This document shows positions 10,868-14,335 of a stretch of 64,000 nucleotides of DNA, one piece after another (the stretch's first letter is position 1; every line of letters starts with the position of its first letter). The stretch lies in the NCBI RefSeq assembly GCF_055900595.2, contig NZ_CM148325.1; one strand, given 5' to 3'. The position numbers were made by a program, and so were the translations under genes. The notes under the pieces were generated by a model, which was not told where the DNA came from, did no database searches, and saw only the letters and a program-made list of their open reading frames with translations.

Positions 10868-13045
10868 ATGATTACTCGTATTCATCGCAATTCTTTCTCT
10901 TTAAATATTAATAATACAGCCCAGACAAATGAACACCAAAACCTGAGTGAATTGTTTTATAAAGAACTCGAGAATAAATTTTCTGGCAAGGAGCTGGGGA
11001 CACCTCTATTAAAAAGCTTCTCAGAAAACTGTAGACAAAACGGCCGTCATATCTTTAGTAATAAGGATTTTGTCATTAAATTTTCCACGTCTGTCTTACA
11101 GGCTGATAAAAAAGAAATTACGATAATTAATAAAAATGAAAACACGACACTCACTCAAACCATTGCTCCAATATTTGAAGAATACCTAATGGAAATTTTA
11201 CCTCAACGCTTAGACACTCTTGATAAACAAGAATTAAACCTAACCTCAGATAGAAAAGAAAAAGAATTTCCAAGAGTTAAACTTAATGGTCAATGTTATT
11301 TTCCGGGGCGCCCCCAAAACCGTATAGTATGCCGACACATTGCTGCACAATATATTAATGATATTTATCAGAATGTTGATTACAAACCCCATCAAGATGA
11401 TTATTCTTCAGCTGAAAATTTTCTCGCTCACTTCAACAAAAAATGCAAAAACCAGACTTTGGCGTTAATTTCCAGCCGTCCTGAGGGGCGTTGTGTTGCT
11501 GCCTGCGGTGATTTCGGTCTAGTTATGAAGGCATATTTTGACAAGATGGAATCAAATGGTATCAGTGTTATGGCGGCCATATTATTGGTGGATAACCATG
11601 CTTTGACGGCCCGGCTAAGAATAAAAAATACAACTGAAGGATGTACCCATTACGTGGTTTCGGTTTATGATCCTAATGTAACTAACGATAAAATAAGAAT
11701 CATGAGCGAAAGTAAAGAGGATATTAAACACTATTCTCTGATGGATTTTATGAATGTAGATTATAGCCTCCTGAAATGGTCAAATGATCATGTTATTAAC
11801 CAATCTGTTGCAATAATTCCAGCACTTCCGAAAGAGCAGCTATTGATGTTAAAAGGATCTGTGGATGAAATAACCCCTCCATTATCACCTGCAACGATGA
11901 ATTTGCTCATGGCAATTGGTCAGAATCACAAACTTACGCAGCTGATGATTCAGCTCCAGAAAATGCCAGAACTACATAGAACAGAAATGTTGACTGCCTA
12001 TAATAGTATTAACCTACCAGGTTTATATTTGGCTATAAATTATGGTAATGCGGATATCGTTGAGACTATTTTCAATTCACTGTCAGCTCCTGGATATGAA
12101 GAATTACTCTCGAAAAAAAACCTCATTAATATTGTGGAGGCAAAAGATAAAAATGGTTGTTCTGGATTATTTTTAGCGATATCACGTAAGGATAAAAATG
12201 TCGTAACCTCGATTCTGAACGCCTTACCTAAACTTGCTGCTACACATCATTTAGATAACAAACAGGTGTATAAAATCCTGAGTGCCAAAAGTAGATCGTC
12301 CAGCCATGTTTTATACTATATTATGGCGAATGGTGATGCCGACATGCTGAAAGTTTTTTTGGATGCATTACCTTTGTTAATTCGCACATGTCATTTGACT
12401 AAAGAGCAGGTACTCGATCTCCTGAAGGCAAAGGATTTTTATGGTTACCCGGGGCTATACCTGGCGATGCAAAATGGGCATAGCGATATCGTGAGAGTTA
12501 TACTCGAAGCATTGCCCTGTCTGGCCCAGGAAATTAACATTTCCGCTTCTGATATTGTAGATCTTCTGACCGCCAAAAGTCTTGCGCGCGACACGGGTTT
12601 GTTTATAGCCATGCAGCGCGGACATATGAACGTTATTAAGACTATTTTTAACGCATTACCCACTCTGTTTAATACGTTTAAATTCGATAAAAAAAATATG
12701 AAGACCCTCCTCCTGGCAAATAATTCTAATGAATATCCCGGTTTGTTTTCAGCGATACAGCATAAACAACAAAACGTTGTAGAGACGGTTTATCTTGCTT
12801 TATCTGACCATGCACGCCTTTTTGGATTTACCGCTGAAGATATTATGGATTTTTGGCAACATAAAGCGCCACAAAAATACTCTGCCTTTGAGTTGGCTTT
12901 TGAATTGGGTCACCGGGTTATTGCTGAATTAATCCTTAATACGTTAAATAAGATGGCTGAAAGCTATGGCTTTACGGATAACCCTCGATACATCGCGCTG
13001 ATGAATCCCCTAATGATTTTTATCAAAATCATTAAGTTAAGGTAG
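10868..13045 (+). CDS. arpA: ankyrin-repeat protein ArpA; native C-terminus replaced by IS10-encoded codons (last native codon ends at 12997)
   Basis: AT-rich ORF; C-terminal half carries about 7 ankyrin-like repeats (GLYLA..G..D.V..I..ALP.L); reading frame runs across the IS10 outside end and stops inside IS10. Confidence 0.85.
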   Translation: MITRIHRNSFSLNINNTAQTNEHQNLSELFYKELENKFSGKELGTPLLKSFSENCRQNGRHIFSNKDFVIKFSTSVLQADKKEITIINKNENTTLTQTIAPIFEEYLMEILPQRLDTLDKQELNLTSDRKEKEFPRVKLNGQCYFPGRPQNRIVCRHIAAQYINDIYQNVDYKPHQDDYSSAENFLAHFNKKCKNQTLALISSRPEGRCVAACGDFGLVMKAYFDKMESNGISVMAAILLVDNHALTARLRIKNTTEGCTHYVVSVYDPNVTNDKIRIMSESKEDIKHYSLMDFMNVDYSLLKWSNDHVINQSVAIIPALPKEQLLMLKGSVDEITPPLSPATMNLLMAIGQNHKLTQLMIQLQKMPELHRTEMLTAYNSINLPGLYLAINYGNADIVETIFNSLSAPGYEELLSKKNLINIVEAKDKNGCSGLFLAISRKDKNVVTSILNALPKLAATHHLDNKQVYKILSAKSRSSSHVLYYIMANGDADMLKVFLDALPLLIRTCHLTKEQVLDLLKAKDFYGYPGLYLAMQNGHSDIVRVILEALPCLAQEINISASDIVDLLTAKSLARDTGLFIAMQRGHMNVIKTIFNALPTLFNTFKFDKKNMKTLLLANNSNEYPGLFSAIQHKQQNVVETVYLALSDHARLFGFTAEDIMDFWQHKAPQKYSAFELAFELGHRVIAELILNTLNKMAESYGFTDNPRYIALMNPLMIFIKIIKLR
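12989..12997. repeat. IS10 target-site duplication, left copy (TACATCGCG)
   Basis: Identical 9-mer immediately flanks both IS10 termini. Confidence 0.9.
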
Positions 13046-13112
13046 ATACACATCTTGTCATATGATCAAATGGTTTCGCCAAAAATCAATAATCAGACAA
13101 CAAAATGTGCGA
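13043..13112 (-). ncRNA. expected position of IS10 antisense RNA-OUT (pOUT transcript opposing the start of the transposase mRNA)
   Basis: Placed only by analogy to the known IS10 layout (about bp 46-115 of the element); not independently visible. Confidence 0.4.
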
Positions 13113-14313
13113 ACTCGATATTTTACACGACTCTCTTTACCAATTCTGCCCCGAATTACACTTAAAACGACTCAACAGCTTAACGTTGGCTTGCCACGCC
13201 TTACTTGACTGTAAAACTCTCACTCTTACCGAACTTGGCCGTAACCTGCCAACCAAAGCGAGAACAAAACATAACATCAAACGAATCGACCGATTGTTAG
13301 GTAATCGTCACCTCCACAAAGAGCGACTCGCTGTATACCGTTGGCATGCTAGCTTTATCTGTTCGGGCAATACGATGCCCATTGTACTTGTTGACTGGTC
13401 TGATATCCGTGAGCAAAAACGGCTTATGGTATTGCGAGCTTCAGTCGCACTACACGGTCGTTCTGTTACTCTTTATGAGAAAGCGTTCCCGCTTTCAGAG
13501 CAATGTTCAAAGAAAGCTCATGACCAATTTCTAGCCGACCTTGCGAGCATTCTACCGAGTAACACCACACCGCTCATTGTCAGTGATGCTGGCTTTAAAG
13601 TGCCATGGTATAAATCCGTTGAGAAGCTGGGTTGGTACTGGTTAAGTCGAGTAAGAGGAAAAGTACAATATGCAGACCTAGGAGCGGAAAACTGGAAACC
13701 TATCAGCAACTTACATGATATGTCATCTAGTCACTCAAAGACTTTAGGCTATAAGAGGCTGACTAAAAGCAATCCAATCTCATGCCAAATTCTATTGTAT
13801 AAATCTCGCTCTAAAGGCCGAAAAAATCAGCGCTCGACACGGACTCATTGTCACCACCCGTCACCTAAAATCTACTCAGCGTCGGCAAAGGAGCCATGGA
13901 TTCTAGCAACTAACTTACCTGTTGAAATTCGAACACCCAAACAACTTGTTAATATCTATTCGAAGCGAATGCAGATTGAAGAAACCTTCCGAGACTTGAA
14001 AAGTCCTGCCTACGGACTAGGCCTACGCCATAGCCGAACGAGCAGCTCAGAGCGTTTTGATATCATGCTGCTAATCGCCCTGATGCTTCAACTAACATGT
14101 TGGCTTGCGGGCGTTCATGCTCAGAAACAAGGTTGGGACAAGCACTTCCAGGCTAACACAGTCAGAAATCGAAACGTACTCTCAACAGTTCGCTTAGGCA
14201 TGGAAGTTTTGCGGCATTCTGGCTACACAATAACAAGGGAAGACTCACTCGTGGCTGCAACCCTGCTTACTCAAAATCTATTCACACATGGTTACGTTTT
14301 GGGGAAATTATGA
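13105..14313 (+). CDS. tnp: IS10 transposase (DDE)
   Basis: 402 aa, MCELDILHDSLYQFCPELHLKRL... matches the Tn10/IS10 transposase as I recall it; DDE contexts VLVDWSD, IVSDAGF, QIEETFRDLK present. Confidence 0.95.
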   Translation: MCELDILHDSLYQFCPELHLKRLNSLTLACHALLDCKTLTLTELGRNLPTKARTKHNIKRIDRLLGNRHLHKERLAVYRWHASFICSGNTMPIVLVDWSDIREQKRLMVLRASVALHGRSVTLYEKAFPLSEQCSKKAHDQFLADLASILPSNTTPLIVSDAGFKVPWYKSVEKLGWYWLSRVRGKVQYADLGAENWKPISNLHDMSSSHSKTLGYKRLTKSNPISCQILLYKSRSKGRKNQRSTRTHCHHPSPKIYSASAKEPWILATNLPVEIRTPKQLVNIYSKRMQIEETFRDLKSPAYGLGLRHSRTSSSERFDIMLLIALMLQLTCWLAGVHAQKQGWDKHFQANTVRNRNVLSTVRLGMEVLRHSGYTITREDSLVAATLLTQNLFTHGYVLGKL

Positions 14314-14326
14314 GGGGATCTCTCAG

Positions 14327-14335
14327 TACATCGCG
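14327..14335. repeat. IS10 target-site duplication, right copy (TACATCGCG)
   Basis: Identical to the 9-mer at 12989-12997. Confidence 0.9.

Follow-up and report, generated by a model that had tools for sequence, protein, structure and literature searches.

A solitary copy of IS10-Left inserted after codon 710 of arpA, next to the convergent gene aceK

To understand how the junction of the convergent genes arpA and aceK came to be interrupted in the strain of assembly GCF_055900595.2, we analysed a 64,000-nucleotide stretch of its contig NZ_CM148325.1 (hereafter the window), in which an IS10-type insertion sequence lies in the 3' end of arpA, close to the aceK stop codon. The locus raises the question of which IS10 this is, how it came to its present site, whether it can still move and what it does to the two genes beside it. 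We consider it very probable (roughly 93%) that it is a solitary, complete IS10, identical in sequence to the IS10-Left of Tn10, which inserted recently, and privately to this strain, after arpA codon 710. The element itself is familiar and only its site is new, and the insertion is an ordinary one private to this strain.

The element occupies positions 12998-14326 on the + strand and is complete with 1,329 bp; every coordinate given in the preliminary description agrees with the sequence. It begins with CTGATGAATCCCCTAATGA at the outside end, on the left, and closes with the reverse complement of CTGAGAGATCCCCTCATAA at the inside end, on the right. The 23-bp terminal inverted repeat of the outside end (12998-13020, + strand) agrees with that of the inside end (14304-14326, − strand) at 17 of 23 positions, and the element thus shows both the length of about 1,329 bp and the imperfect terminal inverted repeats beginning CTGA that are expected of IS10. 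Alignment to R100 (NC_002134, 36132-37460) gave identity at 1329 of 1329 nucleotides (100%), which upholds the original identification of a full-length IS10. The matching copy is the gltS/jemA-side arm of Tn10 in R100, which lies 3.4 kb from tetR compared with 2.5 kb for the other arm, in agreement with the definition of IS10L as the Tn10 arm further from tetR (PMC10044804). The labels left and right as used here rest on the R100 gene order, on that paper and on the outside-end sequence of IS10-Right. Judged by its nucleotide sequence, the copy is the IS10-Left variant rather than the canonical IS10-Right; PGAP names it ISVsa5 family. IS10-Left of Tn10 (R100/NR1) has the same 1,329 nucleotides, transposase (WP_001352368.1), ends, RNA-OUT and Dam sites, but is an arm of Tn10 in R100, whereas the element here is a solitary chromosomal copy in arpA. 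Copies with 100% identity are numerous among E. coli genomes and plasmids; E. coli also has solitary IS10L copies at other loci, annotated as "IS4-like element ISVsa5 family transposase", which are likewise 100% identical.

[quoted passage not shown] Two fixed 9-mers would agree by chance with a probability of 4^-9, or about 4e-6. When the element and one 9-mer were removed in silico, the resulting 998-bp empty site was found with 100% identity in eight complete E. coli genomes, where arpA and aceK overlap at an uninterrupted junction. The window aligns to the genome Z0117EC0005 in two parts, 1-12997 (one mismatch) and 14327-64000 (20 mismatches and one gap), and because these alignments overlap by exactly 9 bp of the reference, that genome carries a single target copy. 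The insertion is the only structural difference from the closest genome over the 64 kb. The perfect 9-bp duplication claimed in the preliminary description is therefore borne out as the duplication of one target copy, and the uninterrupted arpA-aceK locus of other E. coli confirms that it is real. By the established cut-and-paste mechanism, transposase would bind the outside and inside ends and excise IS10, which would then be joined to target DNA whose strands have been cut 9 bp apart, so that repair of the staggered cut would leave the 9-bp duplication (PMC10044804, PMC4574204).

The site had also been regarded as a non-hotspot hit, on the basis of the hotspot consensus NGCTNAGCN. This is the strict IS10 consensus given in PMC4574204, and the poor match stands: TACATCGCG agrees at 3 of 6 positions, a score equalled or exceeded by 18% of the 9-mers in the window. 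A non-hotspot status is not established, since all four positions that the relaxed consensus NRCNNNGYN specifies are matched by the target, as at 1.9% of window positions, and the target has TAC...GCG in common with TACCGGGCG, an IS10 target upstream of cat in pSU8 vectors that is also off the strict consensus and fits the relaxed one (PMC4574204). That site differs in being a recurrent plasmid target under chloramphenicol selection, and its element was reported as identical to J01829 (IS10-Right). The targets of sampled identical copies agree with the strict consensus at 4-5 of 6 positions, compared with 3 of 6 here, and all fit NRCNNNGYN.

A search of 5,426 complete E. coli genomes did not find the arpA::IS10 junction, and the 40-nucleotide left-junction pattern has no exact match in metagenome contigs. 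An exact-protein look-up of the 725-residue fusion product described below returned no record, a weak result, as a protein called from another start codon would likewise escape the look-up. Together with the perfect duplication and zero differences from the reference IS10L, the absence of the junction from those genomes agrees with the original view of a recent, strain-specific event, and on these sequence comparisons we regard the insertion as recent and private to the strain.

The transposase gene (13105-14313, + strand) is uninterrupted and encodes 402 residues, including D97, D161, E292, Y285, R288 and K299, where D97/D161/E292 are the DDE residues of the IS10 transposase. The protein is WP_001352368.1, as annotated on the identical copies, and it reaches 402 bits with the NCBIfam model NF033591 (IS4 family transposase; cut-off 152), so that the intact 402-residue DDE transposase reported earlier is confirmed. 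On the opposite strand, the RNA-OUT antisense RNA gene (13043-13112) overlaps the transposase start and matches Rfam RF00240 over its full length of 1-70 (97.3 bits, gathering score 41, E-value 1.7e-20). An IHF-like site, AATCATTAAGTTA (13027-13039, + strand, IS nt 30-42), agrees with WATCAANNNNTTR at 12 of 13 positions and is presumably the IHF site that IS10 has in its outside end. A scan of the whole element found GATC only at IS nt 67 and 1320. The first of these Dam sites (13064-13067, IS nt 67-70) overlaps the -10 region of pIN, the promoter of the transposase gene, where its role has been described (PMC5006887), and the second (14317-14320, IS nt 1320-1323) lies in the inside end. All known IS10 control parts are thus present, namely pIN with its Dam site, RNA-OUT, the IHF-like site and the inside-end Dam site.

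An intact reading frame is no proof of continued mobility, because IS10-Left has been described as weakly active or inactive (PMC10044804, PMC11148124). The copy in arpA could accordingly be an immobile relic, placed once by transposase from an IS10-Right or a Tn10 elsewhere in the genome, and another copy there may indeed have supplied the enzyme. We give this reading about one chance in four. It is at odds with the occurrence of identical copies carrying their own perfect 9-bp duplications at distinct sites in natural isolates, as seen for 5 of 8 sampled copies in other genomes, and with the 749 records that contain the IS10L-type outside end. De novo transposition of IS10L was moreover observed in NEB5-alpha (PMC11481808), and the IS10 transposase has been described as cis-acting (PMC5006887), which argues against efficient help in trans. 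We favour the view that the element has probably kept the ability to move, if only rarely.

In transcripts that read into IS10 from outside, the transposase AUG is normally hidden in a fold-back stem. When the read-through RNA of this locus (13030-13135) is folded computationally, the AUG (13105-13107) is paired, within a structure no more stable than that of shuffled sequence (z = -0.75); the concealment of the AUG rests on published genetics, with which this fold is consistent. Because the AUG can pair in the fold-back stem, transcripts of arpA that enter the element would be expected to yield little transposase.

The element is oriented with its outside end toward the body of arpA, and the transposase gene is codirectional with arpA and convergent on aceK. 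The arpA frame continues into the element as a 725-residue fusion (10868-13045, + strand), made of 710 native residues and 15 encoded by the IS (LMNPLMIFIKIIKLR). Its stop codon TAG (13043-13045, IS nt 46-48) results from an A at IS nt 47 that is specific to IS10-Left; with the IS10-Right sequence, the frame into the IS would run for 55 codons. The orphaned 3' tail of arpA, 18 codons and a stop (14336-14392, + strand), is contiguous with arpA in the eight genomes with the empty site at 100% identity, and excision in silico restores a 728-residue ArpA with its stop codon at 14390-14392. On the other strand, aceK (14361-16097, 578 residues) is intact, and the native 3' end of arpA overlaps its last 32 bp. 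The aceK stop codon (14361-14363) is 25 bp from the right-hand 9-mer and 34 bp from the end of the IS, so that the coding sequence is unaltered and the 3' flank beyond 34 nucleotides is IS10 sequence. The preliminary description had the essentials of this arrangement right, including the 18 further codons of the restored frame, an arpA end about 30 bp inside aceK, the 15 IS-encoded residues and the distance of 25 bp beyond the aceK stop, which applies when measured from the right-hand 9-mer. Pfam recognized a Toxin_15 domain (ShET2 N-terminal) at residues 130-379 of the fusion and weak ankyrin matches up to about residue 640, and the NCBIfam search of the fusion returned no family. Since the tail of ArpA lies outside these recognisable domains, the effect of the insertion on the cell is probably small.

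It is improbable that the insertion was selected for an altered output of aceK or arpA, through IS10 promoters that fire outward (pOUT over the outside end, pIII/OUTIIp over the inside end) or through loss of the aceK 3' flank. Outward transcription from IS10 can influence adjacent genes (PMC11481808), and the inside end, 34 nucleotides from the aceK stop, points into aceK in the antisense direction. However, the insertion occurs in no other genome of the E. coli set, and neutral transposition would be expected to give just such a single, private event. When 12600-14700 was scanned, nothing resembling a terminator of aceK or arpA turned up in the disrupted region, and we dropped the idea that the IS parts aceK from a recognisable intrinsic terminator.

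A related and still more doubtful proposal is that coupling to arpA makes this IS10-Left unusually active, or that antisense RNA reduces aceK. The frame of arpA is translated into the outside end, and the TAG stands directly in front of the fold-back stem, at its 5' arm. If the proposal were true, ribosomes terminating at the TAG could open the stem, so that translation of the transposase would depend on arpA expression; alternatively, transcription leaving IS10 through the inside end could lower aceK through antisense RNA, affecting growth on acetate.

The identity of the element leaves very little room for the canonical, fully active IS10-Right, which is implicit in the original wording of an intact and still mobile IS10. 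The reference active IS10 agrees with the element in length, ends, architecture and DDE residues and likewise makes a 9-bp duplication, and the tetD-side copy of R100 (43950-45278) is 98.87% identical to the element. By the criterion of the Tn10 arm adjoining tetD, however, the element is 15 nucleotides and four residues off (V266I, L381S, A389T and A398V), whereas it has zero differences from the gltS-side copy. The differing positions are IS nt 24, 25, 27, 47, 83, 107, 410, 425, 903, 1249, 1268, 1271, 1272, 1281 and 1300, of which six fall within nt 24-107, in the regulatory region formed by the first 107 nucleotides. A published comparison lists 19 differences between IS10L and IS10R (PMC10044804), compared with 15 between the R100 copies here. 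The R100 comparison therefore refutes an identity with IS10-Right, unless the left and right labels of the R100 Tn10 are reversed with respect to the literature.

An assembly artefact or chimera, in an organism that itself lacks the insertion, is equally hard to credit. Repeated IS elements often cause misassembly, but both ends of the IS are precise to the nucleotide, and the perfect 9-bp duplication of what is a single target copy in the reference is something that a chimera would not produce. Least likely of all, and excluded as far as the 64-kb window reaches, is that the element belongs to a composite transposon (Tn10 or similar) as one of its arms, or to a larger acquired island: IS10 is best known from the arms of Tn10 and many matches adjoin Tn10 remnants such as ArsR-family genes, but both flanks are colinear with Z0117EC0005 right up to the 9-mers, the 64 kb contain no additional DNA, and in place of the two inverted IS10 copies flanking tet genes that define Tn10, the window holds a single pair of ends, one outside and one inside, with no second IS10 end found.

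The solitary IS10-Left in arpA thus has little importance past strain bookkeeping, for which it provides a clean marker, given its absence from all 5,426 genomes compared, and the annotation of the strain should mark its arpA as altered at the C terminus. The "arpA" PCR product of Clermont typing corresponds to window positions 14372-14771, comprising aceK and the last 20 nucleotides of arpA. No part of this amplicon reaches the IS, which ends to its left, and Clermont typing would still call the strain arpA-positive despite the disrupted gene. For the IS10 family, the insertion is a further case in which IS10-Left, supposedly weak, is found alone in a chromosome with a target-site duplication of its own.

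The insertion within the 3' end of arpA is a complete IS10 of 1,329 bp (12998-14326), with its outside end on the left and its inside end on the right. The outside end begins CTGATGAATCCCCTAATGA, the inside end, CTGAGAGATCCCCTCATAA, closes the element on the right in reverse-complement form, and identical copies of a 9-bp duplication, TACATCGCG, flank the element at 12989-12997 and 14327-14335. Its sole long open reading frame (13105-14313) encodes a transposase of 402 residues, which scores 402 bits against the IS4-family equivalog NF033591 (cut-off 152) and contains D97, D161 and E292 together with Y285, R288 and K299. 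The intact element, its transposase and the identical flanking 9-mers thus agree with the preliminary description. RNA-OUT was identified at full length on the minus strand (13043-13112; Rfam, 97.3 bits, gathering score 41), and an IHF-like site matching at 12 of 13 positions occupies nucleotides 30-42, as numbered from the outside end (IS nt). The element has only two GATC sequences, one at IS nt 1320 in the inside end and the other at IS nt 67, overlapping the -10 region of pIN as described previously (PMC5006887). No truncation or interruption was found in any part of the element, which shows every structural hallmark of IS10 and, likewise, of its IS10-Left variant.

Very many copies on E. 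coli chromosomes and on plasmids of several genera match the element at 100% identity, and PGAP names their product “IS4-like element ISVsa5 family transposase”. Among these is the Tn10 arm of plasmid R100 beside gltS (jemA; 36132-37460). The tetD-side arm of R100 (43950-45278) differs by 15 nucleotides (98.87% identity) and four residues (V266I, L381S, A389T and A398V). Six of the 15 differences, at IS nt 24, 25, 27, 47, 83 and 107, fall in the region containing the IHF site, pIN and the start of RNA-IN and RNA-OUT. IS10-Left is defined as the arm further from tetR and IS10-Right as the closer one, with 19 differences reported between them, compared with 15 for the R100 arms used here (PMC10044804). 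In R100, the distance to tetR is 3.4 kb for the gltS-side arm and 2.5 kb for the tetD-side arm. The tetD-side arm also carries TTTTGGTAAAAATC..., which we take to be the outside-end sequence of IS10-Right. Judged by sequence, the identity to the gltS-side arm, the tetR distances and this presumed IS10-Right end identify the window copy as IS10-Left. Membership of a composite transposon was rejected within the window, and no further IS10 ends occur in these 64 kb; an IS10-Right identity was rejected on the 15 nucleotide and four residue differences.

Removing the element and one 9-mer in silico yields a 998-bp empty junction, which is 100% identical in eight complete E. coli genomes, with arpA and aceK annotated as overlapping in RefSeq. 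Aligned over its full length to strain Z0117EC0005 (NZ_CP098223), the closest of the eight, the window shows one mismatch over 1-12997 and 20 mismatches and one gap over 14327-64000. Because these alignments share exactly 9 bp of the Z0117EC0005 sequence, the target 9-mer is single-copy in the empty site, which bears out the proposed duplication of one target. The IS is the only structural difference over the 64 kb, in keeping with its earlier designation as the one strain-specific feature. IS10 transposes by cut-and-paste, and a 9-bp staggered target cut is repaired into the duplication (PMC10044804; PMC2705183); the window insertion would have followed this standard route. None of 5,426 complete E. 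coli genomes has a place covering at least 80% of a 400-bp left-junction query, metagenome contigs gave no exact match to a 40-nt junction pattern, and the 725-residue ArpA fusion protein had no record, a weak negative. Together with the perfect duplication, the absence of any difference from the reference IS10L and the relatives’ flanks at 99.96-99.99% identity, these searches indicate a recent insertion, as first supposed, that is private to the window strain. The restored arpA-aceK junction matched 5,425 of the 5,426 genomes, of which 4,085 cover at least 80%, so the arpA 3' ends differ between lineages. This search returned nine more places than records, and a few E. coli genomes may carry other interruptions near the junction.

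As for ArpA, the fusion frame (10868-13045) ends in the IS-encoded LMNPLMIFIKIIKLR, exchanging 18 C-terminal residues for 15. Excision in silico restores the 18 codons and a 728-residue ArpA with its stop codon at 14390-14392; the 15-residue tail and the 18 restored codons had been anticipated. The fusion stop codon TAG (13043-13045, IS nt 46-48) exists because IS10-Left has A, and IS10-Right G, at IS nt 47; with the IS10-Right sequence the frame would run for 55 codons. This TAG just precedes the 5' arm of a stem able to pair with the transposase AUG. The only confident Pfam domain of ArpA is Toxin_15 (ShET2 N-terminal region, residues 130-379), ankyrin matches are weak and reach about residue 640, and the exchanged tail lies outside recognisable domains.

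The convergent aceK remains intact, with its stop codon at 14361-14363 (minus strand) and IS10 sequence as its 3' flank from 34 nt past the stop codon. The right 9-mer lies 25 bp from this stop codon and the restored arpA stop 32 bp inside aceK, close to the original estimates. No terminator-like sites were found in the displaced region. Transcription of arpA would enter the outside end in the direction of the transposase gene. Fold-back protects the IS10 transposase against outside promoters; the predicted fold of the read-through RNA, in which the transposase AUG is paired, would agree with such protection, with a z of -0.75 that is not statistically distinctive. Transcripts leading outward from the inside end (pIII/OUTIIp; PMC11481808) would enter aceK in the antisense direction. 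In the aceA-aceK intergenic region (16098-16410), ORF translations show repeated motifs, e.g., ...RIRHRAPIAGCGVNALSGLRSATTVGLIRRASVASG..., which look like REP-type repeats.

The strict IS10 target consensus is 5'-NGCTNAGCN-3' (PMC4574204), as first given, and TACATCGCG matches it at three of six positions in either orientation, a score equalled or bettered by 18% of window 9-mers. Eleven perfect strict sites occur in the window, none in arpA or aceK. The relaxed consensus from many insertions, 5'-NPuCNNNGPyN-3' (PMC4574204), is matched at all four specified positions, as at only 1.9% of window positions. TAC...GCG is common to TACATCGCG and the recurrent IS10 target TACCGGGCG in pSU8 vectors. 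The match to the strict consensus was fairly described as poor, but these comparisons do not by themselves mark the target as a non-preferred site.

IS10-Left has been ascribed very low activity owing to promoter-region changes (PMC10044804) and called inactive (PMC11148124); in NEB5-alpha, by contrast, IS10L was reported to have inserted de novo into a plasmid (PMC11481808). Of eight 100%-identical copies that we sampled from other E. coli genomes, five are each flanked by a perfect 9-bp duplication of their own, every one at a different site; these duplications match the strict consensus at 4-5 of six positions and all fit the relaxed one. The other three, without duplications, are located at what look like IS-mediated rearrangements or deletions: L007 (DH5alpha, NZ_CP026085, 791959-793367) adjoins another IS10, with a truncated nupG on the other side, and L009 and L010 (NZ_CP024273, NZ_CP024263) share a locus bounded by ycjM and a LysR-family gene, both truncated. 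Among complete E. coli genomes, 749 records contain the IS10L-type outside-end region and 1,400 only the IS10R type, which makes the variant common among natural E. coli despite its description as nearly inactive. IS10-Left clearly moves in nature, and the window copy is probably still mobile at low frequency. The element itself is known and has an identical reference copy; its site had not been recorded before, and a specialist would find nothing unexpected in it.

The insertion also touches on phylotyping. The yjaA primers match at 21322-21532 with zero and one mismatches, and chuA and TspE4.C2 are absent from the window. The phylogroup-E-specific arpA primers match with one and zero mismatches (301-bp product, 11253-11553), a hint that the arpA allele may be of the phylogroup E type. 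The Clermont quadruplex “arpA” primers, AceK.f and ArpA1.r (PMC11279604), define a 400-bp amplicon at 14372-14771 with one mismatch each. Besides aceK sequence this amplicon takes in only the final 20 nt of arpA, and all of it is situated to the right of IS10. The strain would therefore still type as arpA-positive, with the gene scored as present in phylotyping PCR despite its disruption.
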